A DNA stretch of 27,357 nucleotides from Bacteroidota bacterium (GCA_046307935.1 JBKCAB010000043.1:1-27357), one strand, 5' to 3'. Positions 3,863 to 25,212 are shown, counted from the first letter of the stretch. The notes: generated by a model not told the origin, from the sequence alone. Translations and numbers: made by a program.

Positions 3863-6800
3863 TCAGATCCGAACGCCGAAAACACAGACGTCATCGATCT
3901 GCTCGTATCCTTCCAGCCAAGTTTCAAACTCACGGATCAGCTCTTTTCCAATCGTTTCTGTGTGTGCAGTGCTCAATCCTGTCAGCAGTAGCTTAAACCG
4001 CGTGTATTTGTATTTTTTACCGAGATCCCCACCAAACTGATCGGCAAAACCATCACTAAAGAGAACGATCAGGTCTCCTGCCTTTAACTGCAACTCATGA
4101 TTGGTGAATGGCACCCTGTCCTCGAAGAGACCAACGGGCTGTTTGTTGCCTTTAAGCTCCATCAGTTCCTCATCGGAGATCACGTACAAAGGATTGTTGG
4201 CACCAGAAAACTCCAACTTACCTGTGCTAAGGTGAAGACAGCACAGGGCAATGTCCATACCGTCCCGAACATCCCCATATCCCTGCTGTCGGAATGCTTC
4301 CTCAACAAGCTCACTCAATTTATCGAGGATCTCTGCCGGGTGTTTGAGGTCATATTCTTTAAGCGCCCTATTCAGTCCATTGTAACCGACGATACTGACA
4401 AAAGCACCTGGCACTCCATGGCCTGTGCAATCAACAACGGCGAAGTAGACCCTGTCAGCAACCCTCCGAACGAAGTAAAAATCCCCTGAGACAATATCTT
4501 TTGGCCGGTAAAAGACAAAGGTGTTCTTCAGGCAATCGGCGACGTAATCTTCTGTTGGCAGAATGGCATCCTGCAAGCGCTTCGCATACCGAATACTGTC
4601 CATGATATCCTGGTTCTTTTGCTCAACAAGCTCTTTTTGTTTTTCGATCTCCGTCTTTTGGGTCATTACCTCAGCTGTTCGCTCTCTGACAACCTCCTCC
4701 AGGTGTTCTTTTTGCTTCCGAATTCTGCGGCTGCTCAGGCGAATTGACAAATAAATCACCAATACAAACAACACAAGATAAAGAAAATAAGCCCAAACGG
4801 TCCTGTACCATGGTGACAAGATCTTGAATCGATACGTGCCAATTTGAGATTCAACACCAAACATGTTCTTGGCTTTGACCATAAATACATATTCACCATC
4901 ATGCAGGTTGGTGTATGATTTTTCTGTATTCGCACTCCAGGCGGACCAATCGTCATCCTGCCCTACCAGCTTGTAGCTGTACTGAATGGTCCTTTCATCC
5001 AGGAAGCTGACTGCCGAGAAGCGAAAACTGATGCTTTTGGAAGAGTAGGGTATAGCATAAACGTGATCTTTCGATTGTACTGATCCAACGAGACCCTTTG
5101 GATTTGTAAAACTTCCTGAGAACAAGACGGAATCGCCCACAGAAAAAGCACGAATCAGGCAGTTGTATGCGATGTTGTAGTTCTTATTGATCGAGGGATT
5201 GTAAAGCATCAGCCCACTGGGGCCTCCCAACCAGGTCATTCCGTTATCGTCGTGAAAGAGACCGTGCACAATATCTACAGAATAGCGCTGAAAATCCCGT
5301 GACTCCCATTTTCTGTCGGGATCATTTCCGAAATATCCGATCTCGAACTTGTTGTTTTCCAAAACCAATACAGCCCACACCTTTCCGCTAACATCCTTCA
5401 TTACCCGGTGCACTCCACATTTACGGGGCAGCTTGTAATCTGAATCGGCAACTAAACGGTCTCCGGAAATTTTAAATAAGCCTTTATCATTGCCGACATA
5501 AGGTGTTCCATCCATGATTGTTACGTAGCTGGGGCCATCATCTTTGGAACCGATCACTTTCCGGATCATTTTTCCATTGGCATCGAACTTACTCACGTGC
5601 GAGCGGATCACTCCATTACTGATCGTTCCTAACCACAGCGTGCCATCCGGCTCAACTGAAATGTTAAAGATATCCTCTGAAAAGCCTTGTACATAACCCT
5701 CATCTTTGAAGCCGGAACCTGTCCATCGGATCTTACTCAGGCCATCGTAATTGGCCACATAAACAAGCGCCGGATCCATTGGAGACTGAATAAAGTTGTA
5801 TGGGCCACTTTTGGCGACAAAGGATAATAGTCCACCGTTCTCACGCAACATCCAGACACCGTTATTGGCAGCAACAAGGAGGACGGTATCATTGCCAAAC
5901 ACCATTTCCTTCACTCCGTAACAGTCGATGGTAAGCCCGGGTACTTTTGCAATACGCTCACTGGTCTTGTCAAAGCTTTCATTCAAATAATACAAGCCGC
6001 TCAAGGTGGCGAAATACGTTCTTCCACGAAAATTGCAGATGCTTTCTACACCGCTGTTCATGCCAAATTCCACTCCGAAACGGCTAACGGGCGAGATGAC
6101 CTCCACCTTTGAGATCCCTTTATTCGTTCCTATCCAGAGGTTTCCTTCGCGATCAAGAAACTGGCATTTTACATTTCCGTCGATCAATCCACTGCTCTGA
6201 TCAATTCGGTAGGTCAATCTGAAGCTTCTGTCAAAAATGAGCAGCCCGTCTGAAAAGGTGCCCAGCGAATAATACTGATCGTAGACATTCAATGCATTGT
6301 ATGCCGGTAATGTAAATGATAAACTCACTTTCTTAGGTGAAGCATGATCCGTATAATCGTCAATATGCCCCTCTGAAGTTTGAATGTATGTTCTGCCTGC
6401 ATAATTCAGCATAGCATAGATCTTTTTACTTTCGATGTAACCCTGTCCTCCCACCGCCGGAACGAACTTGCCGTCTTCTAAAACATAAAGTCCTGTTTGC
6501 TCCTTTGCGGCATATACTCTCCCATTTGCACAGAAAACACCGTAGTAAGGATCCTTTTCAGGAGATCTCCAAATCTGGAAATTGCCATTAGAATAGCCAA
6601 AAACAGCGTTGCCATAGTGAAACAGAACCATCCCGTCACTGAAAGAGACAGACCTTGGATTTTTCAGATCTTGGCCCCCGAGCATTCGAGCGAGAGAAAA
6701 GAAGCACAACTTACCGCTTCTGTTTGCTTTTAAGTAACCCAGATCTCCTTTTGCGGCTACGAAAACAGTACCATTCCTATCTGCTACCAGTCCGCTTACC

Positions 6801-7084
6801 TCTCTGCTATCTTTGTTGTCTTCATTCGGAACGATAATGGTTCGCCAGCTCGTGCCGTCGTATTCGAGTACACCCGACTTATTTCCAAAATACAAGAGTC
6901 CGCGACCATCCTGAGTTATGGAAAAGACCTGCGCATGACCATTGTATTCCGAGGTAGCGTAGTTCCTGAGGTAGAGTGCTCCTTGCAAAAGAGTGCGTTG
7001 CGCATGCCCGGGAAAGGAAAGCAACAACGCGATCAAAACGATCAGGCTGACATTGGTGAAGACCGATCTACTTAACAAGGACAT
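3863..7084 (-). CDS. Membrane sensor phosphatase: signal peptide, beta-propeller repeats, Y_Y_Y domain, one TM helix, coiled coil, SpoIIE/PP2C domain
   Basis: Propeller repeats (QDGRGLLYFG, DREGNLWIGT, EPDGTLWLGT). Y_Y_Y signature YSYKLVG..W..W..YTNL..GEYVFMV. TM segment WAYFLYLVLFVLVIYL. PP2C motifs SGDFY, VDCTGHGVPG, LFSDG and the terminal DD. Confidence 0.88.
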   Translation of the reverse strand: MSLLSRSVFTNVSLIVLIALLLSFPGHAQRTLLQGALYLRNYATSEYNGHAQVFSITQDGRGLLYFGNKSGVLEYDGTSWRTIIVPNEDNKDSREVSGLVADRNGTVFVAAKGDLGYLKANRSGKLCFFSLARMLGGQDLKNPRSVSFSDGMVLFHYGNAVFGYSNGNFQIWRSPEKDPYYGVFCANGRVYAAKEQTGLYVLEDGKFVPAVGGQGYIESKKIYAMLNYAGRTYIQTSEGHIDDYTDHASPKKVSLSFTLPAYNALNVYDQYYSLGTFSDGLLIFDRSFRLTYRIDQSSGLIDGNVKCQFLDREGNLWIGTNKGISKVEVISPVSRFGVEFGMNSGVESICNFRGRTYFATLSGLYYLNESFDKTSERIAKVPGLTIDCYGVKEMVFGNDTVLLVAANNGVWMLRENGGLLSFVAKSGPYNFIQSPMDPALVYVANYDGLSKIRWTGSGFKDEGYVQGFSEDIFNISVEPDGTLWLGTISNGVIRSHVSKFDANGKMIRKVIGSKDDGPSYVTIMDGTPYVGNDKGLFKISGDRLVADSDYKLPRKCGVHRVMKDVSGKVWAVLVLENNKFEIGYFGNDPDRKWESRDFQRYSVDIVHGLFHDDNGMTWLGGPSGLMLYNPSINKNYNIAYNCLIRAFSVGDSVLFSGSFTNPKGLVGSVQSKDHVYAIPYSSKSISFRFSAVSFLDERTIQYSYKLVGQDDDWSAWSANTEKSYTNLHDGEYVFMVKAKNMFGVESQIGTYRFKILSPWYRTVWAYFLYLVLFVLVIYLSIRLSSRRIRKQKEHLEEVVRERTAEVMTQKTEIEKQKELVEQKNQDIMDSIRYAKRLQDAILPTEDYVADCLKNTFVFYRPKDIVSGDFYFVRRVADRVYFAVVDCTGHGVPGAFVSIVGYNGLNRALKEYDLKHPAEILDKLSELVEEAFRQQGYGDVRDGMDIALCCLHLSTGKLEFSGANNPLYVISDEELMELKGNKQPVGLFEDRVPFTNHELQLKAGDLIVLFSDGFADQFGGDLGKKYKYTRFKLLLTGLSTAHTETIGKELIREFETWLEGYEQIDDVCVFGVRI

Positions 7085-7127: not shown

Positions 7128-10100
7128 TTAGTGTCGGATAATTATTCGCCTGTGGAAACTGTTCTCTCCAAACGTTATTTGCAATGTGTATACACCCGCA
7201 GCTGCCATTTTGGAGTCAATGGTATGCTGATCCCCGTCGGACAGCTTGTACAATGTTTCGCTTGAAATCTCTCTGCCCTGAGCATCGATCAAACGATAAT
7301 TCAGTACCGGGACATTGCCCATGTTGAAGCTCAGGTAGATGATTCCGTCTGATGGATTTGGATACACAATCAGCGCATCATCAGGATGAAGTTCAGTAAT
7401 ACCGGTATCATCCAACGGCCCGGCTACGGCTTCAGTCCGGTTGGAACGTGTCGTATTATTGTTTTCTGCTCTCGTTGAAACACACGCCTCTTCCAACGTG
7501 ATGTCAATGAAATAATAAAGGGATGTTGCTGTTGCCATTGGGGCGTTGAGGTCAGTATACGAATTCACATTACTCGGCAACGTAGCTATGATTTGCCATC
7601 CATCTGCATCATCATACCTCCAGACATTATAGCTGGTGTAACTGAAGCCCTCGTAGTTGTCCCAGATCAGATTCACTTCATCATTCAGTCCGATATTCTG
7701 TGTAAGGTGGATGGTCTTGTGGTGGCTGGATAAATACGATTCCGTGCCACAGCTGTCGACTGCAGCGATTTTATACCGATAAGCCTGCACCGCGGGATTA
7801 GAAATGGTGTCTATCCAAGTACTCAATGAATCATAGGGTACGCTCCCCACCAGGTAATATAGCCCGGCCGCACTACTTTCCTTGTAAACATTGTAGTAGG
7901 CTACCCCTGTTTCCGCGAGTTTTTCCCAAGCAACCTTGTTGTGCTGTCCGGGACCAACTGTGACAACACAAATTGGATTGACCGAGGGGATCTCATATTC
8001 TATTGCATAGATCGCATTTGATTCACAGCCATTCGCTCCGGAAACCGTGAGGGAATACTCTCCTGGTGCCAGACCGGATATGCCATTTCCAGTGGCTCCA
8101 TTGGACCACAGGTAGCTGTATGGAGCTGTTCCGCCGATCGCCGAAACATAGATCCCGCTTCCACCCAAACCACAACCCACATCGAGGAGAGAATCCAAAA
8201 TAATTCCTGGAGCATTTGTTTCACTGATAGCTACACTTCCTTCAGTAACACAGCCCTCGTTGTCAATAACCGCAACTGAGTGTATGCCTGCAGGTAGCCC
8301 ATTTGCTAAGGGTCCTGAGTCGCCATTGGACCAAACATAAATGTACGGCCCGGTAGTGCCTGTTACCACCGCTGCTGCTGCTGCATTTGCCCATCCGCAG
8401 GTTGCCTGCGTTGAAGTGAACTCCAGCTCAACCTGGCCGGGCTGCTCAACAGTTACACTAGCCACAGAGATGCATCCCTGACCGTTGGTGACAACCACTT
8501 CATAAGGCCCTGCAACCAACCCGCTGACATCCTGACTTGTAGCCCCGTTAGACCATTGATAGGTTACACCCTCCGTATTTCCAATTGGTGTAATGTCGAT
8601 GGCTCCGTTATCCTCACCATAACAGCTGACATCCACTACATTGGAGACCGCAATCGTTGGCGCTTCTGCATCTGAAACGGTGGCCAGAGCAAAGTCGACA
8701 CAACCCTCGCTGTCGGTCACGTTCACAATGTATGTCCCGGCGCTAAGGTTCGCATTGATATTAGATGTAACCGCATTCGACCAGACATAGGTAAAAGGTG
8801 CGTTCGGACCTACGACGTATGCAACAGCCGTTCCATTGGATTCTAAGCAGTTTGAATTGCTTGAATTGGTGATGATCTGCATTTCGGAATCAGGAATATC
8901 GATCATTTGAGTAATGATCACTGTATCTCCACAATTGTTCCTGGCAACCATTGTGACCGTGTAAGTTCCCGGCTCCGCATACGCATGCGTGACGGGTTCC
9001 AGGGCCTGGCTCGATAATTCAACGCCTGAATTATCACCGAAATTCCAGAAGAACTCATTTCCTCCAAATCCACGGAAAACAAGTGGTTCATTCAAGCAGA
9101 AATAATTATCCTCCTCCACAAAGAATCCGGCTTCTTCGATCTCACTACCCGGTGCTATCGTCAGCACGATGTCCTCGGTAGCCGTAAGTCCACAACCATT
9201 GGTCAGGGATACCTGCACATTATACACACCCGGCACTGTATATAAGTAATACCCTTGGTGAAAAACCATTTCAGACTCTTCCGCACTTAGAGCCAATGAG
9301 TCGGTTATCGTAACCAGATCATTGTTGCCCATGTTCCATACCACAGTATTTGAAGCGCTGTACGGATAAGTTAGCAACATGATATTGTCTCCGGGACAGA
9401 ATTCATCCTGAATAGTCGTGGCCAAGAAATTCCCCGGAGGGACATTGGAGCCTGCACTTATGCTCGTGTACAAGGTCGTATCATTACCGCATGAATTTTC
9501 GATCGTGCACGATACTGTGTAAGTACCGGAAGCAGCATATGCATGATAACCCGATATCGCGTCACTGGTGTTGCCATCTCCGAAATCCCAGGTGAAACTA
9601 CCACCCTGTTGTGACAGTAACCATGCCCCGGAAATATCATAAATGAATGCATCTCCAACACAGATCTCCTCAGGCAGCTGGCTGAATTCTACGTTGGGAT
9701 CAACAGGTATATTGTTCGTTATGTTCACAGCCAAATATACCGTCGTGTCATTCCCGCATCCATCCATGAGTGTAAGCCCTACATTATACTGTCCGGGATT
9801 GTTGAAAGCATGGTAAGGCTCCATGATGTTGCTGGTTCCACCATCACCAAAATTCCAAAGGTAAGTAGTAGCAGGAGGACCATAAAAACGGATCTGAGCG
9901 CCCGGACAAAATGTTGCATTGCTGTTGCCGTCCACGCTTATGCTTGCAGAACCGGTAAAATAGTTGACATCAGAAACGACTACCGGAATATCCTCATAGG
10001 TAGCAGTATTGCCACAGCCATTCTGAACCGTAACTGTAGGGTAATACGTACCGTAATTTGAGTAAACATGATTGCCTGCTGTTCCCGTTGTACCATCACC

Positions 10101-11105
10101 ATAATTGAATAAATAACTTTGACTCCAATCCGTGTAAAGATTGACCATTGTACCGGGACAGATCGGATTGTTGGCGGCCCAACCAACCTCAAGAAAACTT
10201 TGTACCGGAATATCCGAACCTACATGAATCATTGTATCAATGATCTGAGTTCCACACTCAGAGTTCACTGTGAGCGTTACCGGATAATTACCTGTGGCAG
10301 TGTAGGCATGGAAGAAAGTGAACCAATTGTTGTCTGAAGTTTGTGTAGTTCCATCGCCGAAATTTATCGAATACGATGCGTCGAACGTGTTGTTAAAATA
10401 TGCTGCATCCCAAAAAGTGATCTCATCTCCAACGCAAACAGTGTCCTTTGTGATGTTGATCTTTGGTCTGTGACCTCCGACGATCACGTATTGGCTCGTA
10501 GTACCAACCTGCACTCCGAGCGCATTGAATCCGCGAAGGGTAACCCAGTAATACCCTGCTTCGGCATAGGTGTGTGATGGCGAAGCTTGAGTGGAGGTTG
10601 AACCATCACCAAAATCCCACTGATACCCCGAAATACACTGCGAATTATTCGCAAAGGGAACCGGATCTCCGAAACAAATGTAATCCGGCGCATCAAAAGC
10701 AACTGCTTGCTGCTGACCATCCGACAAGGTGACCGCCATGTTCACAGTAACATTGTCATTGTAATTGTCGCTCGGATTGTCATACACCCTAACGGCTACA
10801 GAGCTTAACGGCATAAAAGGCGTCAAGTCAACGGTGGCCCCTGAACAAAAACTGTTTGGTAACTCAACGCCGTCAATGATCACTCTGGCAAGCGTCCAGT
10901 TACAAGGTGTTGAATAATTGAAAGCTAATGATGCAGACACAGGATTATTCACACCGCATGAAAAATTAGTGATGGTAGTTGTAAACCCGGGTAGATCTGA
11001 TCCGGTCTGGGTTGCCGTTACGGAACATGGACAAGCCGATGCATTGAAACTACTGATGATCAAAAGGAATAATGCTCCAGCTTTCACAAGGAACTTTACT
11101 GACAT
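7128..11105 (-). CDS. Large T9SS type A cargo surface protein: about 7 PKD-like domains, 4 SprB-like repeats, 2 FnIII-like modules, C-terminal sorting domain
   Basis: Signal peptide (..SSFNASA). Repeated W[DN]FGDG..H.Y...G.Y.V.L. Repeated C..NG......Y.WSNG....L..G.Y.V.V....GC. The C-terminus LIVYPNP..G...GVYTLQI..RIIIRH is typical of type A CTDs. Confidence 0.88.
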   Translation of the reverse strand: MSVKFLVKAGALFLLIISSFNASACPCSVTATQTGSDLPGFTTTITNFSCGVNNPVSASLAFNYSTPCNWTLARVIIDGVELPNSFCSGATVDLTPFMPLSSVAVRVYDNPSDNYNDNVTVNMAVTLSDGQQQAVAFDAPDYICFGDPVPFANNSQCISGYQWDFGDGSTSTQASPSHTYAEAGYYWVTLRGFNALGVQVGTTSQYVIVGGHRPKINITKDTVCVGDEITFWDAAYFNNTFDASYSINFGDGTTQTSDNNWFTFFHAYTATGNYPVTLTVNSECGTQIIDTMIHVGSDIPVQSFLEVGWAANNPICPGTMVNLYTDWSQSYLFNYGDGTTGTAGNHVYSNYGTYYPTVTVQNGCGNTATYEDIPVVVSDVNYFTGSASISVDGNSNATFCPGAQIRFYGPPATTYLWNFGDGGTSNIMEPYHAFNNPGQYNVGLTLMDGCGNDTTVYLAVNITNNIPVDPNVEFSQLPEEICVGDAFIYDISGAWLLSQQGGSFTWDFGDGNTSDAISGYHAYAASGTYTVSCTIENSCGNDTTLYTSISAGSNVPPGNFLATTIQDEFCPGDNIMLLTYPYSASNTVVWNMGNNDLVTITDSLALSAEESEMVFHQGYYLYTVPGVYNVQVSLTNGCGLTATEDIVLTIAPGSEIEEAGFFVEEDNYFCLNEPLVFRGFGGNEFFWNFGDNSGVELSSQALEPVTHAYAEPGTYTVTMVARNNCGDTVIITQMIDIPDSEMQIITNSSNSNCLESNGTAVAYVVGPNAPFTYVWSNAVTSNINANLSAGTYIVNVTDSEGCVDFALATVSDAEAPTIAVSNVVDVSCYGEDNGAIDITPIGNTEGVTYQWSNGATSQDVSGLVAGPYEVVVTNGQGCISVASVTVEQPGQVELEFTSTQATCGWANAAAAAVVTGTTGPYIYVWSNGDSGPLANGLPAGIHSVAVIDNEGCVTEGSVAISETNAPGIILDSLLDVGCGLGGSGIYVSAIGGTAPYSYLWSNGATGNGISGLAPGEYSLTVSGANGCESNAIYAIEYEIPSVNPICVVTVGPGQHNKVAWEKLAETGVAYYNVYKESSAAGLYYLVGSVPYDSLSTWIDTISNPAVQAYRYKIAAVDSCGTESYLSSHHKTIHLTQNIGLNDEVNLIWDNYEGFSYTSYNVWRYDDADGWQIIATLPSNVNSYTDLNAPMATATSLYYFIDITLEEACVSTRAENNNTTRSNRTEAVAGPLDDTGITELHPDDALIVYPNPSDGIIYLSFNMGNVPVLNYRLIDAQGREISSETLYKLSDGDQHTIDSKMAAAGVYTLQITFGENSFHRRIIIRH

Positions 11106-11234: not shown

Positions 11235-13730
11235 TCAAAATTTCAGCGTGAGTCGAACCATGAAATTCCTGCCTGCCTGCGGATAAACGAAATTCTCGAT
11301 CACTCGTTGGCCTCCGAAAATATAGCCCCAGGTATAACCGTTGTTCGCATAGCGGAAGTTCAAAAGGTTATTGACGTTCAATCCAAGGCTCAACTCCTTC
11401 ATCATCCACTTCGCAATTGAATAGGAAGCCCCGGCGTTGACGATGAAATACGCATCCAGCATCCGGTCCTCGCTCGAAGTATTATCAAGAAACTGACTGC
11501 CAACATACTTACTGAGAAGGGTTAACTGAAGATCCTTGACGGGCTCGTAAGCCAAACCGAGTGTCGCAATCATTCGCGGAGAAAAGGCAAGATCCGTGTT
11601 CTGATGGAGGATAGTGTCCTGGATCATGTTCCCTTCGCTATCGTAATTGTCGTAATTATCGACAAACTCGGTAAAGGAGACTATCTTATTCTGACTCAAG
11701 GCCAAGCTTCCAGACATGTTCAGGTTATTCAAGATGCGGTAACCTGCTTCCAATTCCAGTCCTGCTCGGTAGCTTTTGTCGACGTTGGTGCGAATGTAAG
11801 CACCTACATCGTTGATCTCTCCAGTCAAGATAAGCTGATCGCGATAGCTCATGAGATATACATTGGCATTGAAGAATAATTTGTGCGCGTTGTATCGGAA
11901 TCCTGCCTCCACATTGCCAAGCTTTTCAGCTTTCGGTGTCACACCCGGCGCACTTGAAATAAAATCGTCCCTCACCGGTTCGCGGTTGGCTACACTGTAT
12001 GAAGCATAGAGGAGTGATCGCTCATTGAGATCATAGGAAAATCCCAACTTCGGATTGAAAAACAGGAAATCTTCCTCCTGCTGCACGGAAATGATATCAC
12101 CCATAAACTGATCCATTCCCAGATACGCGTAATTCAGGTAACGCCCCTGAAGGTCCAGGAAGAAATTAAAGCGTTTGTAGTTGTAATTCGTTTTAAGATA
12201 GAGGTTCGCCTCGTTCTTTTCCGCATCGTTGTCATAGTAGCGCTGACCGATCTCGCTCTGTGAAGCATTTCGCGCCCAGACCACTTCCCCAAAGTGCTTG
12301 CCGATGTATTGGTTGGCTCCACCTCCCAAAATGAAGCGGAATCCGTTCACGGGAGCGAAGGACATGGAGAATACCGTTCCGTAGAAATGAGTATCGAGCC
12401 AACGCTGACGGATCAGATCGGTGGTGGTGATCGTGTCTGCACCGTAAATCAGTGGTTCGAGGCCGTAATCTGCAAAATCATCTTCCCTGCGGTACTGCTC
12501 GAAGTAGCCCCTGCCACGGGTGTAATGCCCGGAAACATTCACCAATACTTTCTTAAAATCATAGGTGTAATGCAACTGGTAATGGTCTTGCTGGTAGTTA
12601 TCGGTCTCGTTTTCGTAGGTGTAGTAATTGTAGGTGTTGCTGCCTGAATTGAACAAGTTGATCGAATCCTGGGCTGTCTGGTAGGTTCCACCCGGGTAGT
12701 AATTGTTATAGAAATGCATGAGCAGACCATCCTCATCCCCATTGAACTTTGCCTGAGGAACTCCCCACCAGGCTTGATAGGTTCTTTCTTTTCCGCTGAA
12801 TACATTGGCCTTGAGTACGCTCTTCTTGCCAACATAAGCACCTGAAATATAAAATGATCTTAAGTTCGACGAAGCACGATCGATGAACCCGTCAGACGAG
12901 ATGCGAGAGAGTCGCATGTCCAGGGCAAAGCGGTCGTTAATAAGTCCCGTTCCTGCTTTAACGGTATTTCTCCAGGTGTTGAAGGATCCGGTCGAATTGT
13001 CGATCTCGGCGAATGCCTTGCGCTGGATGTTATCCGTCTTAATGTTGATGCTGGCTCCGAAAGCAGCTGCACCATTGGATGATGTTCCTGCCCCGCGCTG
13101 CACCTGGATGTTTTCCGCAGACGATGCGAAATCGGGCATGTTTACCCACCAAACGCCGTGCGATTCAGCATCGTTGAGCGGGATTCCGTTCACTGTCACA
13201 TTGGTGCGCGTTGGATCTACGCCTCGGATGCGGATCCCTGTATACCCCACTCCTGCGCCGGCATCGGATGTGACCACTGTCGAGGGAACCGTTTCCAGCA
13301 AATACGGCAGATCCTGCCCGTAATTCGCCTTGTCGATCTGACTGCCACTCAGGTTGGTGTAGGTTGTCGGCGTTTTCTGATCAGCCCGCACTCCCACCAC
13401 CTGTACTTCCTCGATGTTGAGCGCAGAAGGCGACATAACCAGCTCGAGCCGCACGTCGGCTCCTTCTACTTTCACCGATCTTTCAAGGGGCTCGAAACCA
13501 ATCAGCGAGGCTTTCAGCGAATAGCTGTTGGATGGAACCGTAGTAATGCGGAAGTTCCCGTTGGGATCGGAATACGTACCGAAAAAGGTTTCTTCCAGCG
13601 TGACCTTCACACCGGGCAGTGTTTCTCCGTCGGAACTTCTTACCGTTCCCGAAATGATGTGTTGATTGAATGCGTTCAGCGGCACCGCACATGCGACTGC
13701 CCAGAACAAACGAACCATTCTTGTTTTCAT
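11235..13730 (-). CDS. TonB-dependent outer-membrane transporter, probably for thiamine
   Basis: Signal peptide, carboxypeptidase-regulatory-like N-domain (ISGTVRS..GETLPGVKV), plug motifs (IRIRG, NGIPLND, QVQRG, GASINI), barrel C-terminus NVNNLLN..Y..GRNFMVRLTLKF ending in Phe. The substrate is inferred from the TPP riboswitch in its leader. Confidence 0.92.
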   Translation of the reverse strand: MKTRMVRLFWAVACAVPLNAFNQHIISGTVRSSDGETLPGVKVTLEETFFGTYSDPNGNFRITTVPSNSYSLKASLIGFEPLERSVKVEGADVRLELVMSPSALNIEEVQVVGVRADQKTPTTYTNLSGSQIDKANYGQDLPYLLETVPSTVVTSDAGAGVGYTGIRIRGVDPTRTNVTVNGIPLNDAESHGVWWVNMPDFASSAENIQVQRGAGTSSNGAAAFGASINIKTDNIQRKAFAEIDNSTGSFNTWRNTVKAGTGLINDRFALDMRLSRISSDGFIDRASSNLRSFYISGAYVGKKSVLKANVFSGKERTYQAWWGVPQAKFNGDEDGLLMHFYNNYYPGGTYQTAQDSINLFNSGSNTYNYYTYENETDNYQQDHYQLHYTYDFKKVLVNVSGHYTRGRGYFEQYRREDDFADYGLEPLIYGADTITTTDLIRQRWLDTHFYGTVFSMSFAPVNGFRFILGGGANQYIGKHFGEVVWARNASQSEIGQRYYDNDAEKNEANLYLKTNYNYKRFNFFLDLQGRYLNYAYLGMDQFMGDIISVQQEEDFLFFNPKLGFSYDLNERSLLYASYSVANREPVRDDFISSAPGVTPKAEKLGNVEAGFRYNAHKLFFNANVYLMSYRDQLILTGEINDVGAYIRTNVDKSYRAGLELEAGYRILNNLNMSGSLALSQNKIVSFTEFVDNYDNYDSEGNMIQDTILHQNTDLAFSPRMIATLGLAYEPVKDLQLTLLSKYVGSQFLDNTSSEDRMLDAYFIVNAGASYSIAKWMMKELSLGLNVNNLLNFRYANNGYTWGYIFGGQRVIENFVYPQAGRNFMVRLTLKF

Positions 13731-13735
13731 TTTTT

Positions 13736-13769
13736 AAAAATTAAAACAAGAACAAGGGGCCAATTCTTG
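13736..13769 (-). terminator. Putative riboswitch expression-platform terminator
   Basis: The minus strand reads CAAGAAU-UGGCCCCUU-GUUCUUG then UUUUAAUUUUU: a 7-bp stem, 9-nt loop and U-rich tail just before the ATG. The stem is AU-rich and weak. Confidence 0.45.
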
Positions 13770-13792
13770 GTGGTGAATACTCAAATTGACTT

Positions 13793-13890
13793 GTCATCTT
13801 CCCTGCGCAGGCATTACCCTGTATCAGGTTCAATGGGTATGATCTCAGCTCCGTCCGATAGCTATCGGAATCGGGGCACCCCTTAGAGAC
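13793..13890 (-). ncRNA. TPP riboswitch (THI element), cis-regulatory aptamer
   Basis: The minus strand reads GUCUCUAAGGGGUGCC..GCUGAGAUCAUACCCAUUGAACCUGAUACAGGGUAAUGCCUGCGCAGGGAAGAUGAC. It contains the conserved GGGGUGC, CUGAGA, UACCC, AACCUGAU, AAUGCCUGCG and AGGGAA blocks. P1 is GUCUCU/AGA(U)GAC. Confidence 0.93.
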
Positions 13891-13894
13891 AGGA

Positions 13895-13902
13895 CAAAAA
13901 TA
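13895..13902 (-). promoter_or_regulatory. -7 element (TATTTTTG) of the riboswitch-TBDT transcript
   Basis: Exact TAnnTTTG match. A 4-nt spacer places the likely +1 on G13890, the first base of P1. Confidence 0.6.
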
Positions 13903-13935
13903 ATGATGAAATGTGAATTACGAATCATTAATTGG
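13901..13935 (+). repeat. Degenerate heptamer tandem array, left arm (5 units)
   Basis: TAATGAT GAAATGT GAATTAC GAATCAT TAATTGG in exact 7-bp register. Confidence 0.55.
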
Positions 13936-14026
13936 AAAACAGACTCAAAACCTGTCAGTTCGTTTGTCCCGACTGAAGTGAAGCGCATAGAAGGGATTTA
14001 TCGAGAACGACAGAATCCAAAAAACC

Positions 14027-14061
14027 TTCATTCATAATTAGTCATTTGTAATTCGTAATTC
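14027..14061 (-). repeat. Degenerate heptamer tandem array, right arm (5 units), inverted relative to the left arm
   Basis: The minus strand reads GAATTAC GAATTAC AAATGAC TAATTAT GAATGAA. It has an 11-bp perfect inverted match to the left arm (13915-13925 vs 14051-14061). Confidence 0.6.
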
Positions 14062-14547
14062 TATGATCTTCCGGCACAATTCAATCCGCTCCTCATTGTA
14101 TCCCTTCACAACAGTAAACGGCAGTCTGCGCTCCTGCAGTTCTTTGAGATAAAGCGCAAACAGTTCCATGCGTTGTTCAGGATGTTCGCGCAAAGGATCT
14201 TCTTCCCACGCTATATCCGGATAACAGAGAAAATAATGGTCGAACCGTTGATTTGACAGTGCATCAAGGATAAATGGATCTACTTCGCCGTATTTGAATT
14301 CGGACCAGATCTTTAAGACGATCATTTCTGTATCGCTCACTAGGCGTGGGGCTTTTTCGTTTTGCACCCATAAATTCAACTGACCTTTGGCGATGGCAAG
14401 GAGGTCCGATTGGTCATAGATGCCCTGCCTCTCCAAAAGGTAACTTCGCGCGAATTCCGGAATGCAGGTGGCGCCGAGATACTCGGCCAGCAACACCGCC
14501 AGGGTCGTTTTTCCCGTCGACTCCGGACCCGTTAGTGCAATCCTCAT
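14038..14547 (-). CDS. Stand-alone NadR-type P-loop kinase (AAA_28 family, ribosylnicotinamide-kinase-like domain), 169 aa
   Basis: Walker A GPESTGKT, then PEFARSYL, DT, and WEEDPLR, as in the NadR C-terminal domain. There is no HTH or NMNAT domain. The start is moved to ATG 14547, overlapping the pnuC stop (ATGA). Confidence 0.85.
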   Translation of the reverse strand: MRIALTGPESTGKTTLAVLLAEYLGATCIPEFARSYLLERQGIYDQSDLLAIAKGQLNLWVQNEKAPRLVSDTEMIVLKIWSEFKYGEVDPFILDALSNQRFDHYFLCYPDIAWEEDPLREHPEQRMELFALYLKELQERRLPFTVVKGYNEERIELCRKIIELRITND

Positions 14548-15146
14548 ACTCGCGCCTGTTTTCGGTATGCTTTCAACCATTTATAATATCCGAATATTGC
14601 AATTACTGTATAGGCACTATACATCAGCGCCGTCATATTGAGCTCTTTGTAATAATACAGGTATACAGAAACCATGTCAATGATGACCCAGTAGACCCAG
14701 TTTTCCAAAACTCTCCGCACCACCATAAAAGTAGCACCAATACTGAAAACTGTGGTAAATGCATCCAGATAGGGAAGTGACTGATCTGAAAAGGTATCGA
14801 AAAGATAACCCAACAGCAAGGTTAGGACTGCACTGAACAGAATGTATTGCAGATGATGATAAGACCTCCACCGGGTAATGAATTCAGCACTGTTCTCCGA
14901 TCGATGCCATGAAAACCAGCCCCAGCATGCCATGCCTACATAAAAGATCTGAAGCAAGGTTTCGAGATACAATTGACTGACAAAACAAATGTACACGTAT
15001 ACTCCGGATGAAATTACCGCGAAAAACCATCCAACAGAACTCTTGCGGGCGATGAATATAACATAGGCCAGACTTGCAAAAACTGCTATCCACTCTACAA
15101 CAGTAGTGTTCAGAATCTCAAGACCAATATTATCGAGCTTGTCCAT
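14544..15146 (-). CDS. pnuC: Pnu-family vitamin transporter (PnuC nicotinamide riboside or PnuT thiamine type)
   Basis: 200 aa with about 7 hydrophobic helices. Motifs GWFSW, PYLDAFTT, ENWVYWVIID and GYYKW are characteristic of the Pnu family. Confidence 0.88.
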   Translation of the reverse strand: MDKLDNIGLEILNTTVVEWIAVFASLAYVIFIARKSSVGWFFAVISSGVYVYICFVSQLYLETLLQIFYVGMACWGWFSWHRSENSAEFITRWRSYHHLQYILFSAVLTLLLGYLFDTFSDQSLPYLDAFTTVFSIGATFMVVRRVLENWVYWVIIDMVSVYLYYYKELNMTALMYSAYTVIAIFGYYKWLKAYRKQARV

Positions 15147-15226
15147 AGGATGAGAACGCGAAGGTCATAAAAATGTTTGATAGATTTAAGATCCATCCAA
15201 ATGGTAATAAATGAACCAAATGGAAC

Positions 15227-21530: not shown

Positions 21531-24167
21531 CTACCTCAAAAGGTTAACGTGTCCTGTGATGAATTGTTTATCGTCGTTATCTCTGCTTTTGAATTCGATC
21601 TTCCAGATATATGTCCCTTGCTGGCAAGTATAAATGGTATCACCATTGGTATAACTTCCATCCCAACCGTAATTTGGATCATTGGACTCAAATATGAGCT
21701 CTCCCCAACGATTGAAGATCTTTAGATTGTAATTGTAAGGATCAAACCCGGAGGTGAAAACCGGTTTAAAGGCTTGATTAACGATGTCTCCATCCGGTGT
21801 AAATGAATTGGGTACATAGTAGATCAACTCTTCCAAGACTTCCACGTAATTAACTGCTGTATCGAGACATCCAAGCGGTGATTCGGCCACTAATGTAATC
21901 CAGTAGCTACCTGCCTCTCCGAGCGGAAATTGATGGGTCGGTTCAACCTCGTTGCTAGGCGCTGAACCATCCTGAAAATACCAGGTGTAGCTTTCTCCCC
22001 CGACACTAGTGTTCATAAATGACACCTCTGTACTCCAGCTCGTCACCTGCTGAGGTATCGGAAGGAATGAAGCGATCGGCGGCGCCTCTGCACAGATCAT
22101 ATTTTCTTGTGTCAGCGAACTAAAACAGCCACTTGAAAATTCAGTGGTCAATGTCACGTCGTAGCACCCCCCCTCTTCAAAAACAGCCTGCACCGTTCCA
22201 CATCCGGAAATTGTTGTACCATCCGATAACGTCCAGACACAACTCGTTGTTCCTTCGGTCGTATTGGTGAAATTGACGGTAAGCGGCGTACATCCCGAGT
22301 TTATATCTGCTGTAAAGGAGATTTGCGGCGAGCTGCCTGTGGTAATGGTAATATCATCTGTATCTGTACATCCAAAGGCTGATGTTCCTGTAACCGTGTA
22401 AACTGTTGTTCCGGCGGGAGGGAAGAATGCGACGCCATTGGACACTCCATTGTTCCATGTATAACTCGCGGCACCTGTTCCCGTAAGGGTCGCCATTGAA
22501 CCTTCACAGAGTGAAAGATCATTTCCGGCATTGACATTTGGTATGGGATTCACTGTGACTGAAATCTGATCTGAAGCTTCACATCCCTGTGACTCGACAG
22601 TTACCGAATATGTCCCTGTCTGGTTAACCAATAAAGTGGCACCGGTCGAATTATCCTGCCACAAGTAATTTCCACCGGGTACTGTAGCATCCAGTAAAAG
22701 CGTTTCACCAGCACAAAATGATGCATCATTCCCAAGATCTACATCGGGTGAAGGATTCACCAAGACTGAAAGGTTATCGGTTGCTGTCCCACAAGAATTC
22801 GTCACATTCACGGTATAACTCCCGGGAAGTGACACATTGTATGTTGACGTCGTAGCACCATCCTGCCACGTATAGTTTGCGCCGGGAAAGGAGGCGTCTA
22901 AGGTGACTGTTTCTCCCTGACAGATCGTTAGATCAGGTCCAAGATCCACCAACGGTGAACCTACATATGTAACTGTAATGGCATCCGTCACAGATCCGCA
23001 GTTATTCGTGAGCGTTACGGAAAAGTCTCCCGCCAGGGTTACATTAAACGTAGGCGACGTAGATCCATCCTGCCATAAGTAGGACGCTCCCGGATCAGTT
23101 ACATTGAGCAGCTGAGTTTGTCCATTGCACAACACCAGATCAGGACCAAGATTCAACACCGGAGGAGCATTGTAAATGGCCTGAACAGCATCTGTTGCAG
23201 AACCGCAATTGTTGGTGACCGTTACCGAATAGTTGCCCGCCTGTGTAACTGTGAAGGTAGGAGATGTTGATCCATTCTGCCACAAATAGCTTGCTCCGGG
23301 AGTTGTTGCGTTCAACACTTGTGATTGCCCCGTGCAAAGCGTTAGGTCAGGACCGAGGTTCAGAACCGGCGCGGAGCCAAAATTAACAGTTACAGCATCG
23401 GTTGCTGTACATCCGTTGACATTGATGGTTACACTGTAGGTTCCGGCTTGCGTCACGTTAAAGGTTGGTGCTGTCGAACCGTTTTGCCATTGATAGTTAG
23501 CACCGGGGGTTGTTGCATTGAGTGTCACGGTTTGTCCGGCACATAAATTCTGATCCGGGCCCAAATTCACGGAACAAGTTGTTGAGGGAACGTTACACCC
23601 TACACATAGATTATTTACAAATCCTGATGATCCTGTAGCACCTGAATGGATAATAAGCCAGGTATGTCCCGCTTGAGCAGCAGTCGCCGTAAACGTAAAC
23701 GGATTGGTCACCCATGAAGTTCCTGCGGGTGTCAAATTCCCTACCAGGGTTCCCGGATACATTGCTGTGGAATTGGTATACACTGCGGGAGAAAAGTTGG
23801 CGTTGCTTCCGAAACCGTGACTGACAGTTGTGAAATTGAAGGTGTAGGTTTGTCCGGCAACAAGCGGTGCATTCAATTGAACAGCAAAGCCCTCGCCACC
23901 TGTGGTCCATGAATTACCATTTCCGCACCAGATGACACGACAGCCCTGACCACCAGCGGGTGGAGGCAGTGTCAGATTGGCTCCCGACCAGCCACCAACC
24001 CAGGCCGAACCGTTCCATTGGCACAGATCAGCATCGAAACTTACCAAATTTGCACTGGGTGGAAATCCTGTTGATGGAGTGCTAGTCGAAAAACAAGAGT
24101 CTATTATCTGTTGTCCAAATCCATTGAAAGTCGCAAGAATTGCCAGGAACGTATAGATATGTTGCAT
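21531..24167 (-). CDS. T9SS type B cargo (gliding-motility-associated C-terminal domain) with six Ig-like repeats and two PKD domains
   Basis: The start is moved to ATG 24167 (MQHIYTFLAILATFNGFGQ, a signal peptide). The C-terminus YVPNSFTPDGD..N..F..IFNRWGELIFES..WDG..GTYIWKI..GHVNLLR is the type B CTD signature. Confidence 0.9.
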   Translation of the reverse strand: MQHIYTFLAILATFNGFGQQIIDSCFSTSTPSTGFPPSANLVSFDADLCQWNGSAWVGGWSGANLTLPPPAGGQGCRVIWCGNGNSWTTGGEGFAVQLNAPLVAGQTYTFNFTTVSHGFGSNANFSPAVYTNSTAMYPGTLVGNLTPAGTSWVTNPFTFTATAAQAGHTWLIIHSGATGSSGFVNNLCVGCNVPSTTCSVNLGPDQNLCAGQTVTLNATTPGANYQWQNGSTAPTFNVTQAGTYSVTINVNGCTATDAVTVNFGSAPVLNLGPDLTLCTGQSQVLNATTPGASYLWQNGSTSPTFTVTQAGNYSVTVTNNCGSATDAVQAIYNAPPVLNLGPDLVLCNGQTQLLNVTDPGASYLWQDGSTSPTFNVTLAGDFSVTLTNNCGSVTDAITVTYVGSPLVDLGPDLTICQGETVTLDASFPGANYTWQDGATTSTYNVSLPGSYTVNVTNSCGTATDNLSVLVNPSPDVDLGNDASFCAGETLLLDATVPGGNYLWQDNSTGATLLVNQTGTYSVTVESQGCEASDQISVTVNPIPNVNAGNDLSLCEGSMATLTGTGAASYTWNNGVSNGVAFFPPAGTTVYTVTGTSAFGCTDTDDITITTGSSPQISFTADINSGCTPLTVNFTNTTEGTTSCVWTLSDGTTISGCGTVQAVFEEGGCYDVTLTTEFSSGCFSSLTQENMICAEAPPIASFLPIPQQVTSWSTEVSFMNTSVGGESYTWYFQDGSAPSNEVEPTHQFPLGEAGSYWITLVAESPLGCLDTAVNYVEVLEELIYYVPNSFTPDGDIVNQAFKPVFTSGFDPYNYNLKIFNRWGELIFESNDPNYGWDGSYTNGDTIYTCQQGTYIWKIEFKSRDNDDKQFITGHVNLLR
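22327..23577 (-). repeat. Six intragenic tandem repeats of about 69 aa (about 207 bp)
   Basis: Recurring LG[PN]D..[LIF]C.G....L.A..PGA.Y.WQ.G.T.....V...G.YSV......C....D. The NLGPD-type codons recur at about 207-bp spacing; the sixth copy is more diverged. Confidence 0.85.
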
Positions 24168-24210
24168 AACCAGCTTAGTGACGAATTGAAAGGCGATGAG
24201 TTGCCTGTAT

Positions 24211-25212
24211 TTACGTAATTGTTCGGTAAACACTATCTACAGTAATTTGTGTGATACATTTACACGTTTTGCCCTTTTTACAGATCGGACAGCTCTCATC
24301 GTATACCAGGATTTCCACATCACGACCCAATGCCGCCCAACGTCCGGGATGTATGGGTTTTCTGGGAGAAAAGAGTCCAACTGTTCGAATACCGGTAAAA
24401 GCAGCTATGTGCAGCGGACCCGTAGAGCACGCCACAAGGGCATTGCATTTTCCGATGAATGTGATCAGTTCAGTCAGAGTCATTTGTCCCGTTGTGTCCA
24501 TGATCAGTGCATGATCGGGAATGAGGTGTCTGAACTCTTTACCTTCGTTTTCTGTACCGGTAAAGAAAACTTGTGCGCCTTTTTCTGCCAGTCGTTTCGC
24601 TAACTCGACATAATTTTCGATCGTCCATTCCAAAGCACTGCCCTGAGATTTAGGATGCAAAACAACGTTTTCACGGGAATTCTGAACACGAGCGGCAATT
24701 TCGGCAGGTAATGCAGTTTGTGTCGGCACGAAAGCATCCAACATCTCTCGGACCGCATTCAGCGTGGGTATTTCACGCAGTCCAAAAGGTCGAAGTAATT
24801 CGAAGTTCAGCTGGGACTCATGCAGATCAGAACGTTTGCGCGTAAAACTGATGCGGTGGTTACAGGTAAGCAAATGAAAGGTGCGGTGCGACGTTCCAAC
24901 CCTGAAGGGTATCTTCGCTTTTTTGGCCAGCGAGGCGATTTCTTTTACCGGGAAAACGTGAATGATGGCGTCTGCTCTCAATTCCGAGAATCTACTCACC
25001 CGTTCAGCCGTTGGAAGCATTTCAAGCTCCTTCCAGTCAATGAATCGATCTACTACTGAAAAACAATCTACAACGGGCCTTGTATAACCGCTTCCCAAGT
25101 AGATGAGTTCTGACTGTGGGTAATTCTTTTTCAACCATACGAGCATGGGAAGTGTCAACATGACATCTCCGATGCTGTCAGTTCTCGATATTACAATTCG
25201 CTCGAAATTCAC
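24211..25212 (-). CDS. Glycosyltransferase family 9 (heptosyltransferase-like, LPS core), GTG start
   Basis: RTDSIGDVMLTLP, HP motif (LHPKSQGS), and STGPLHIAA, corresponding to the GT9 DSGPxH motif. Confidence 0.88.
   Translation of the reverse strand: MNFERIVISRTDSIGDVMLTLPMLVWLKKNYPQSELIYLGSGYTRPVVDCFSVVDRFIDWKELEMLPTAERVSRFSELRADAIIHVFPVKEIASLAKKAKIPFRVGTSHRTFHLLTCNHRISFTRKRSDLHESQLNFELLRPFGLREIPTLNAVREMLDAFVPTQTALPAEIAARVQNSRENVVLHPKSQGSALEWTIENYVELAKRLAEKGAQVFFTGTENEGKEFRHLIPDHALIMDTTGQMTLTELITFIGKCNALVACSTGPLHIAAFTGIRTVGLFSPRKPIHPGRWAALGRDVEILVYDESCPICKKGKTCKCITQITVDSVYRTIT

Follow-up and report, generated by a model that had tools for sequence, protein, structure and literature searches.

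A stand-alone NadR-type kinase with a probable role in thiamine salvage, encoded between a Pnu channel and a TPP-riboswitch receptor in a freshwater Bacteroidota bacterium

Known salvage systems and comparison with the locus

Enterobacteria salvage thiamine by means of ThiK, a kinase of the aminoglycoside-phosphotransferase-type fold that forms TMP, and of ThiL, which converts TMP to TPP. Thiamine uptake in gut Bacteroidetes involves OMthi (BT2390), the channel PnuT (BT2396) and the thiamine pyrophosphokinase Tnr3/TPK (BT2397) (Costliow and Degnan 2017, PMC5613172), a system predicted by Rodionov et al. 2002. The PnuT protein from Shewanella woodyi transports thiamine by facilitated diffusion and binds neither TMP nor TPP (Jaehme et al. 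2018, PMC5749112). In nicotinamide riboside (NR) salvage, the channel PnuC is paired with the kinase NadR, and facilitated diffusion is followed by metabolic trapping (Kurnasov et al. 2002; structures 1LW7, 6GYE and 8X7F; PMC7221760).

The window, i.e. the whole analysed stretch of 27,357 nucleotides, derives from a freshwater Bacteroidota bacterium (genome G000, 96.8% complete, 866 contigs). As in the OMthi-PnuT-Tnr3 system, it clusters a TPP-riboswitch TonB-dependent receptor (TBDT), a Pnu inner-membrane channel and a putative cytoplasmic trapping kinase. Unlike in that system, however, the trapping enzyme has the fold of the NR kinase (RNK) domain of NadR and is not a pyrophosphokinase (PF04263), the order is pnu-kinase-riboswitch-receptor, and the expected product is TMP, which requires ThiL, rather than TPP directly. 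The canonical form was found in other classes of the phylum, as TPP-TBDT-TPK-Pnu (locus L214) or as Pnu-TPK (L210, L211, L221). With PnuC-NadR the locus shares a Pnu channel, a kinase that agrees in fold and in its Walker A, Walker B and lid residues, and, as we assume, the mechanism of diffusion and trapping, whereas its kinase lacks the NMNAT and HTH domains of NadR and the distribution of the pair follows thiamine genes and not NAD genes. The proposed chemistry equals that of ThiK and ThiL, but the P-loop kinase has a fold unrelated to ThiK.

We propose, with a probability of roughly three in four, that the locus enables a thiamine auxotroph to salvage the vitamin in three steps. The receptor would carry thiamine over the outer membrane and would be switched off via the TPP riboswitch at high cofactor levels; thiamine would then diffuse through the Pnu channel over the inner membrane, and the translationally coupled kinase would phosphorylate it to a product, most likely TMP, that is trapped in the cell and could be converted to TPP by ThiL. 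The kinase would thus take the role that Tnr3/TPK has in Bacteroidetes, and the pnu-kinase pair would stay outside riboswitch control. This reading is supported by genomic context and co-occurrence, in the absence of biochemical evidence.

Organization of the locus

All four elements lie co-oriented on the minus strand. The pnu gene (14544..15146) encodes a channel of 200 amino acids, and the kinase gene (14038..14547) a stand-alone protein of 169 amino acids. According to our reading of the sequence, both genes overlap by 4 bp (ATGA), with the kinase ATG at 14547-14545 and the pnu TGA at 14546-14544. The kinase frame has an upstream in-frame ATG at 14580; orthologues begin at the MRI position instead. 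Searches of the 12 remaining large ORFs in the window gave neither a TPK nor an NMNAT domain. Sequence and domain searches confirmed the initial annotation in these respects, i.e. the overlap, the co-orientation upstream of a TPP riboswitch and a TBDT, and the lack of TPK and NMNAT genes in the window.

The element at 13783..13893 (minus strand) aligned with the full RF00059 model (positions 1-105, E 3.9e-9) at a score of 53.3 bits, one bit short of the Rfam gathering cut-off of 54.3; its P3 stem is shortened. The corresponding aptamers of relatives scored 49.8-65.9 bits, and a covariance model built from the relatives found the same element 3' of the kinase in other loci. We accept the element as a predicted TPP riboswitch in spite of its score; no other was found in G000. 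Directly 5' of the aptamer, TATTTTTG (13895..13902, minus strand) matches TAnnTTTG, the consensus of the Bacteroidetes -7 promoter box, and most relatives in the alignment have a TTTG at the same place. This suggests that the receptor may have its own promoter, and its separate transcription is inferred from this box. Between aptamer and receptor, immediately ahead of the start codon of the latter, lies a terminator-like element (13736..13769, minus strand), in which a hairpin (CAAGAA...TTCTTG, 13769-13747) is followed by a T-run (13746-13736). The hairpin loop contains GCCCCUU, which base-pairs with the aptamer's 5' strand in the minimum-energy fold; hairpin and T-run together form a probable expression platform, though no experiment is at hand.

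The receptor gene (11235..13730, minus strand) encodes an OMthi/Omr1-type TonB-dependent outer-membrane receptor of 831 amino acids with Plug, TonB_dep_Rec_b-barrel and CarbopepD_reg_2 (CarboxypepD_reg) domains. In relatives, the gene 3' of the riboswitch is an orthologue with 43-65% identity; TPP-TBDT-TPK operons from other classes encode receptors that are only 25-26% identical. Plug and barrel directly 3' of a TPP riboswitch, in a layout shared with relatives and with canonical TPK operons, qualify the protein as a thiamine-regulated receptor. In none of the sampled loci was a riboswitch seen before pnu-kinase. Thus, the pair has no direct regulatory link to thiamine, except for an unlinked Pnu in genome G074 that is directly preceded by a TPP riboswitch. 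The gene order implies riboswitch control of the receptor alone; the initial annotation had drawn the same inference, and the conserved -7 box fits it.

Assignment of the Pnu channel

The channel matched PF04973 (174.7 bits, model positions 2-175), TIGR01528 (98.9 bits) and the structure of PnuC (4QTN, E 5.6e-10). Pnu proteins are characterized by WxxW(x)3D/N in TM6 and by gate tryptophans at the ends of TM3 and TM7 (PMC5749112); the translation carries W150xxW153xxxD157 together with W80 and W190, fulfilling the criteria of the family. It shares the seven-helix core, the WxxW(x)3D motif and the two gate tryptophans with S. woodyi PnuT, whose trapping logic is assumed here as well; the S. woodyi sequence itself was not compared. 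No further Pnu gene was found in G000.

In phylogenetic analysis, the protein fell into a family-specific clade A (SH-aLRT 99-100), which also holds all 15 Pnu proteins of ThiC-negative genomes with TPK. Its identity to the NadR-linked Pnu proteins that occur in this family is only 24-30%. In a quick tree, clade A and canonical PnuT proteins were joined with moderate support (SH-aLRT 82), but the deepest branching remained unresolved, and the AU test did not reject a grouping of clade A with NadR-linked PnuC (p 0.65). Three of four tnr3-adjacent PnuT anchors nested among kinase-linked Pnu proteins of other families (SH-aLRT 95-99), as did the riboswitch-preceded Pnu of G074 (SH-aLRT 95-99). 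The placement among Pnu subfamilies proposed earlier as a check was therefore achieved in part: the protein is distinct from NadR-linked PnuC of its own family, and its deeper origin is not settled.

The genomic context resembles that of PnuT, i.e. the gene adjoins a TPP-TBDT unit and occurs in thiamine auxotrophs, though without a riboswitch directly before pnu. It does not resemble that of PnuC, as the neighbouring kinase has no NMNAT domain; moreover, searches detected no NAD riboswitch in the region and no NadR-type NMNAT in G000 as a whole. We read the protein here as a PnuT-like thiamine channel; transport of thiamine is inferred.

Properties of the kinase and its possible substrates

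Only AAA_28 (106 bits) and AAA_18 matched the kinase among domain families. Scores with TIGR01526 (73.6 bits, cut-off 341) and NF005988 (43.6 bits, cut-off 201) were far below those required for NadR. The AF2 model (pLDDT 95.4) fitted best to the NadR RNK domain 8x7f_A (TM 0.89, rmsd 2.0 Å), and GPESTGKT, D72 and W114/D117/R120 aligned with Walker A, Walker B and lid residues of 8x7f and 1lw7. Of the invariant positions of the kinase family (G7, E9, G12, K13, E31, R34, Q56, D72, W114, D117, R120, R126), nearly all recur in NadR RNK domains, and no signature of a substrate change was found in the sequence. Overall identity to RNK domains is only 20-24%, and the stand-alone kinases branch apart from RNK domains that belong to true NadR proteins within the family (SH-aLRT 88). 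No match to TPK_catalytic (PF04263) was found, in a search that did not cover ThiK, and no paper describing such a kinase was found.

The shared active site leaves room for the channel and kinase to accept both thiamine and NR, which are both cationic N-heterocycles with a primary alcohol. In line with this, the WxxW(x)3D/N site is common to Pnu proteins that differ in specificity, and G000 contains a homologue of CinA/PncC (NMN deamidase), which would allow the use of NR-derived NMN. We nevertheless consider dual use improbable: there is no positive pointer to NR, and three family genomes keep a true PnuC-NadR pair (NMNAT plus RNK) as a separate second system besides pnu-kinase, which argues for distinct roles.

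Ordinary NR salvage would assign NR import to PnuC, phosphorylation to a stand-alone RNK and the conversion of NMN to NAD to PncC/NadD, leaving the receptor as an unrelated syntenic neighbour. All automatic annotations and family names, which give PnuC or NR kinase, speak for it, as do fold and catalytic residues, the missing riboswitch in front of pnu-kinase and the presence of PncC, so that the NR route is not excluded. Against it stand the separate loci of genuine PnuC-NadR pairs in the same family and, above all, the distribution of the pair described below, and we regard it as even less probable than dual use.

From the comparison of hundreds of genomes, and without biochemistry, the protein probably represents a type of thiamine kinase that has so far escaped recognition, with TMP as the most likely, inferred product. 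The role of a non-canonical thiamine kinase claimed in the initial annotation is thus supported, whereas the accompanying claim of misannotation as NAD salvage is likely but not demonstrated, the substrate being unproven. If the assignment is true, the kinase is the enzyme lacking from the annotation of G000.

Thiamine genes in G000 and co-occurrence within the family

Neither ThiC nor ThiD was found in G000, and TPK (PF04263) had no match anywhere in the genome. A lone match to ThiE turned out to be HisA/F, so ThiE is absent as well. ThiL is present (316 bits). Consequently, G000 needs a thiamine kinase for the use of intact thiamine. ThiL had internal stop codons in three of four genomes of the TPK-using genus g21 and in none of the kinase-bearing genomes, which is what a kinase route reliant on ThiL would predict. 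It is, however, kept in nearly all genomes including TPK users, and is therefore only weak evidence for TMP as product.

Kinase, ThiC, TPK, Pnu and NAD genes were counted in the same 101 genomes of the family. Kinase and ThiC, each present in 42 genomes, overlapped in a single one (Fisher 8e-13), and the kinase never occurred with TPK (15 genomes). Pnu was present in 56 of the 59 ThiC-negative but only two of the 42 ThiC-positive genomes (4e-22); 55 of the 59 have Pnu plus either the kinase (41) or TPK (14). Because the genomes are related and hence not independent samples, significance is overstated by the Fisher values. ThiC-positive and kinase-positive members occur side by side in nine genera, eight of which partition perfectly. 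NAD genes did not track the kinase: NadA was found in 9/42 genomes with and 11/59 without it (p 0.8), and NadC in 99/101.

In genus g20, the kinase beside Pnu and an unlinked TPK are swapped in place. G046, G084 and G100 contain Pnu-kinase-TPP-TBDT and no TPK; in G066, Pnu is followed after 100 nt by the TPP riboswitch and TBDT, the kinase is missing and TPK is unlinked. The Pnu protein of G066 shares 76% identity with its counterparts in G046 and G100, and 56% with the one in G084.

The co-occurrence test called for earlier thus yielded a kinase and a channel that track ThiC loss, exclude TPK and ignore NAD genes. NR salvage leaves the restriction of the pair to ThiC-negative genomes and the exclusion of TPK unexplained, and it would deprive 41 genomes of the family and seven from other families of a route from thiamine to TPP. 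The independence from NAD gene content also weighs against dual use.

Conservation of the adjacency beyond the family

The TPP riboswitch directly follows the kinase in 16 of the 42 kinase-bearing family genomes, far beyond chance with only one to two TPP riboswitches per genome. The adjacency recurs in eight genera of the family and in four further families (f4, f8, f11 and f17, in f8 without adjoining Pnu). Its survival in five families despite Pnu loss and DUF4301 insertion speaks against NR salvage. Together with the ThiC and TPK patterns, this conservation supports the thiamine salvage reading of the initial annotation, in which receptor, channel and kinase form one route. Seven complete genomes from the other families with kinase-TPP-TBDT lack ThiC, and no TPK was found in their families. 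In the class without genus g35, TPK was present in one of 73 genomes with a kinase match and in six of 12 without (p 1.4e-5); the single exception (G470) has a NadR-like match.

Genus g35 breaks this complementarity, with TPK in 15/15 genomes and the kinase also in 11, fused to DUF4301, a domain of the UDP-sugar-pyrophosphorylase fold. The fusion resembles the NadR design of a kinase joined to a nucleotidyltransferase, which is in favour of NR salvage, and persistence of the kinase beside TPK is easier to understand with a second substrate, as in dual use. A kinase for another thiamine-related compound (precursor, analogue, degradation product, or TMP for conversion to TPP), or a regulatory ATPase instead of a trapping kinase, would suit these fusions, which hint at chemistry past simple trapping, and a link that is to thiamine in general without a specific substrate, but is highly improbable, since precursors are unusable for G000 without ThiD and ThiE, ThiL already forms TPP from TMP, the complementarity with TPK fits an enzyme acting on thiamine itself, and all catalytic kinase motifs are intact.

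The order proposed to serve thiamine salvage was also conserved in metagenomes, where a TPP riboswitch lay on the same strand 3' of the kinase in 18 of 80 loci, followed by the receptor in 16/16 loci with enough remaining sequence.

Organization and regulation of the pnu-kinase-receptor locus

Domain, riboswitch and ORF searches of the window identified the following order on the minus strand: a Pnu-family gene (15146-14544, 200 aa, PF04973 with 174.7 bits), a P-loop kinase gene (14547-14038, 169 aa, AAA_28 with 106 bits), a spacer of 144 nt, a TPP riboswitch aptamer (13893-13783, 53.3 bits, E = 3.9e-9, whole model aligned), a hairpin (13769-13747) followed by a T-run, and the gene of a TonB-dependent receptor (13730-11235, 831 aa). 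The ATG of the kinase gene overlaps the pnu stop codon in an ATGA motif. These searches upheld every point of the locus described in the initial annotation, which had placed the overlapping pnu and kinase genes directly upstream of a TPP riboswitch and a receptor gene. The riboswitch was not detected by Rfam at the gathering score (cut-off 54.3 bits), and its assignment rests on the E-value threshold; in relatives, the equivalently placed aptamers scored between 49.8 and 65.9 bits.

The module is flanked by a 1073-aa sensor phosphatase of the SpoIIE type (3863-7084), which also carries Reg_prop/Y_Y_Y propeller repeats, and by two large proteins that combine PKD repeats with a type IX secretion sorting domain and of which one also has an SprB repeat (7128-11105 and 21531-24233; all on the minus strand). 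The remaining large ORFs code for two transporters (one of the MFS type and one amino acid permease), two glycosyltransferases, an AsmA-like protein, a DEAD-box helicase, an alpha/beta hydrolase, a beta-lactamase-family protein and a DUF4837 protein. None of these ORFs, the sensor and the PKD proteins included, is linked to thiamine or NAD.

No riboswitch was found upstream of pnu in the window, which fits the earlier inference that TPP represses the outer-membrane step only. In most relatives, the sole riboswitch of ThiC-negative genomes precedes the receptor gene, wherever this gene is located, and the same restriction fits there as well. In this design, TPP would be sensed solely at the energy-costly outer-membrane step, with the passive channel and the kinase outside riboswitch control. 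The sequence TATTTTTG at 13902-13895 fits the consensus of the Bacteroidetes -7 box, and a TTTG is kept here in most aligned relatives. Read-through cannot be excluded because no convincing terminator was found between kinase and aptamer. A sigma-70 promoter/terminator scan of this interval, which does not model Bacteroidetes promoters, gave nothing usable, and folding of the spacer revealed no significant structure (z = -1.1). Judged by its sequence, the hairpin with T-run downstream of the aptamer resembles a terminator, and the minimum-energy fold pairs its loop with the 5' strand of the aptamer.

Thiamine and NAD genes of the host genome

The window is contig 43 of the G000 assembly (3.0 Mb, 866 contigs, 96.8% complete), and the closest named record is a Crocinitomicaceae MAG. 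A contig search with the kinase alone as query returned one locus. Near-identical DNA to positions 11235-15200 (56-98% of sampled words) was present in some 20 metagenome runs from freshwater, which belong to 10 or more studies, indicating that the organism is widespread in lakes. None of the public RNA runs contained the window sequence.

The G000 genome harbors one Pnu gene and one TPP riboswitch, the one in the window. ThiC, ThiD, ThiE and TPK were not found; a weak 'ThiE' match was rejected as HisA/F. ThiL was identified with 316 bits. In the absence of the four enzymes, the organism should, as far as gene content tells, depend on intact thiamine and require an enzyme that forms TMP (or TPP). 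No known enzyme for this conversion was found in G000 in a search that included TPK and did not cover ThiK. On the NAD side, NadC and a CinA/PncC homologue were present, and neither NadA nor an NadR-type NMNAT was found.

Co-occurrence of the kinase with thiamine genes in the Crocinitomicaceae

The same 101 family genomes were searched for the kinase, TPK, Pnu, ThiC, TPP riboswitches, ThiL, NadA, NadC and DUF4301. The link between this kinase and thiamine genes that had been proposed from the window alone was borne out, with the kinase tracking the absence of ThiC and excluding TPK. The kinase and ThiC were each present in 42 genomes, with a single genome shared (Fisher 8e-13; one weak kinase match with 31% identity was left out), and none of the 15 TPK genomes contained the kinase. 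The 59 ThiC-negative genomes comprised 41 with the kinase, 14 with TPK and four with neither, two of the latter being only 59% and 79% complete. Pnu was found in all kinase genomes, all TPK genomes and one incomplete genome (4e-22 versus ThiC), not counting a sub-threshold match of 22.7 bits in one ThiC-positive genome. NadA was similarly frequent with the kinase (9/42) and without it (11/59, p = 0.8), and NadC was present in 99 of 101 genomes. The presence of ThiL was rejected as a discriminator, since 98 of the 101 genomes carry it. The Fisher values ignore kinship; as related genomes are not independent, the real weight is carried by repeated switches within genera. Of the nine genera with ThiC-positive as well as kinase-positive species, eight show no overlap between the two sets.

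In genus g20, three genomes (G046, G084 and G100) contain the Pnu-kinase-riboswitch-receptor arrangement, and TPK was not found in them. In the fourth ThiC-negative genome of this genus, G066, the kinase is absent, and Pnu is followed after 100 nt by the riboswitch and the receptor; its TPK is located on another contig. The G066 Pnu shares 76% identity with those of G046 and G100 and 56% with that of G084, suggesting that the same channel works with either enzyme. At the level of sequence, the pattern looks like that expected of a non-orthologous displacement of the trapping kinase. Directly upstream of the G066 pnu, a YceI-like lipid/polyisoprenoid-binding protein is encoded (L121:5324-5833, minus strand), the stop codon of which adjoins the pnu start.

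In a ThiC-negative genus that uses TPK, the ThiL matches of three out of four genomes contain one internal stop codon (G085:C8:1782-2771, G047:C37:27015-28004 and G067:C83:6138-7127); no such stop was found among kinase-bearing genomes. These stops may mark the decay of a ThiL that is no longer needed in the presence of TPK.

Conservation of the arrangement beyond the family

Within the family, the kinase is directly followed by riboswitch and receptor in 16 of the 42 kinase genomes (eight genera). Outside the family, kinase homologues with 38-46% identity were found in most genomes of the class (84 of 100) and were rare elsewhere in the phylum. The kinase-riboswitch-receptor order was also found in families f4, f8, f11 and f17, in f8 without an adjacent Pnu. 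ThiC was not found in seven complete genomes with this layout, and no TPK was found in their families. When genus g35 was left out, one of the 73 class genomes with a kinase match contained TPK, versus six of the 12 without a match (p = 1.4e-5); in the single genome with both, the match was an NadR-like 324-aa frame. In family f3, the only kinase-less genome (1/21) is also the only one with TPK. In family f24 of the phylum sample (87 genomes), neither TPK nor an NadR-like kinase was found.

Eighty metagenome loci were retrieved with an alignment of six kinase sequences and scanned with a model built from the riboswitches of relatives. In 18 loci, the kinase had a co-oriented TPP riboswitch downstream, and a receptor homologue followed this riboswitch in all 16 loci with enough sequence; none of the 80 loci had a riboswitch upstream of pnu-kinase. 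One metagenome contig, L158, has two tandem TPP aptamers (1389-1490 and 1496-1602) between kinase and receptor. No TPP riboswitch was found within 6 kb of the distant kinase homologues of family f52 and two others (loci L124-L129).

Relation of the kinase and Pnu to NadR and PnuC

The kinase matched NadR only weakly at the sequence level (PDB matches with E = 2e-6 to 2e-5; TIGR01526 score of 73.6 bits versus a cut-off of 341). The AF2 model (pLDDT 95.4) superimposed on the RNK domain of 8x7f with a TM score of 0.89, and the catalytic residues are those of NadR RNK. In the tree, all 68 stand-alone kinases were separated (SH-aLRT 88) from the RNK domains found in the family's three true NadR proteins, which comprise 328-330 aa and have an NMNAT domain with HxGH motif. 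True NadR adjoins its own Pnu, with its own TonB-dependent receptor upstream, and forms a second system beside pnu-kinase in G056, G022 and G079. These modules of receptor, PnuC and NadR without HTH (NMNAT plus RNK; L050:504-3383, L120:2605-6213 and L053:1-2812, all on the minus strand) had no detectable riboswitch and look like the NR counterpart of the thiamine module, with an outer-membrane receptor of their own.

In one clade (SH-aLRT 99-100), the Pnu of the window was intermixed with the family's other kinase-linked Pnu proteins and with all 15 from TPK genomes. Three of four tnr3-adjacent PnuT anchors from other classes nested (95-99) among kinase-linked Pnu proteins of other families, as did the G074 Pnu (L067:1483-2070), the gene of which has a TPP riboswitch directly upstream (1306-1420, 45.8 bits; contig G074:C5). 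This Pnu, of the canonical PnuT clade, is the only one of its genome, and the stand-alone kinase lies alone on another contig (L020). The window clade grouped with the canonical PnuT clade with only moderate support (SH-aLRT of 82); a grouping with NadR-linked PnuC was not rejected by the AU test (p = 0.65), which also showed that the quick Pnu tree search had missed the optimum. In the WxxW(x)3D/N motif, the D/N position was rejected as a separator of thiamine- and NadR-linked Pnu because both carry D.

Substrate of the stand-alone kinase

The closest described system is the TPP riboswitch-controlled OMthi-PnuT-Tnr3 uptake system of gut Bacteroidetes (PMC5613172). Its canonical form was recovered here in other classes of the phylum; the window module differs from it in its type of kinase, in where the riboswitch lies and in an inferred dependence on ThiL. 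A diffusion-plus-trapping mechanism has been demonstrated for S. woodyi PnuT (PMC5749112), and a recent field study counts Bacteroidetes 'pnuC' among the B1 uptake genes (PMC12442306). No description of an NadR-like thiamine kinase was found in the literature.

We consider it probable (about 0.65 for all parts jointly) that the stand-alone NadR-like kinases of the class represent a third, so far unrecognized family of thiamine-phosphorylating enzymes, unrelated to TPK and ThiK, that has repeatedly displaced TPK as the trapping partner of PnuT and carries the wrong label, NR kinase or NadR, in a very large number of environmental genomes. No biochemistry supports this assignment, and several further points keep a role in NR phosphorylation, alone or as one of two substrates, in consideration as an unlikely alternative. 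Nearly all residues conserved in the kinase family are also conserved in NadR RNK, so that no change of substrate can be read from them, and PncC would permit the use of NMN. In genus g35, TPK is present in 15 of 15 genomes with the kinase alongside in 11, and the kinase sometimes travels with DUF4301. A single purified protein would suffice for a direct test of the assignment as thiamine kinase.

Thiamine auxotrophy is common among aquatic bacteria, and predicting B1 need and recycling from genomes hinges on recognition of the salvage kinase. If the kinases do act on thiamine, predictions of B1 auxotrophy and B3 salvage would be systematically wrong at the kinase step in abundant freshwater and marine Bacteroidota. 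A pathway hole would be filled in ThiC-negative, TPK-negative members of the phylum, which in this family alone would concern 41 of the 59 auxotrophs, and a widespread annotation would be corrected, the homologues found here being named NR kinase or NadR-type NMNAT. It would also provide a clear example of a kinase fold recruited to another cationic vitamin together with a matching change of the Pnu channel.

Fusions of the kinase with DUF4301 and other domains

In the 11 kinase-bearing g35 genomes, the kinase lies inside an open frame of 733-800 aa; the only one examined (L103:1-2253, minus strand) is a fusion with DUF4301 (PF14134). In this genus and in several metagenome loci, DUF4301 is joined to the C-terminal end of the kinase, and in seven metagenome loci it lies, fused or separate, between kinase and riboswitch-receptor. 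Further DUF4301 examples are L171:5965-8049, L199:5953-8076, L205:867-2981 and G000:C33:5649-7043. DUF4301 was present in 101 of 101 family genomes irrespective of their thiamine genes and is thus not specific to the thiamine module. It had no sequence match in the PDB and only one passing mention in the literature, and is uncharacterized; its predicted fold is that of UDP-glucose/UDP-GlcNAc pyrophosphorylases (pLDDT 87.7, Foldseek E = 2e-11). By analogy, a kinase joined to a nucleotidyltransferase recalls NadR, and the fused kinase may supply another nucleotidylated derivative of unknown identity. One family genome encodes a kinase with a GNAT acetyltransferase domain fused to its C-terminus (L006:1465-2451, plus strand, 328 aa).
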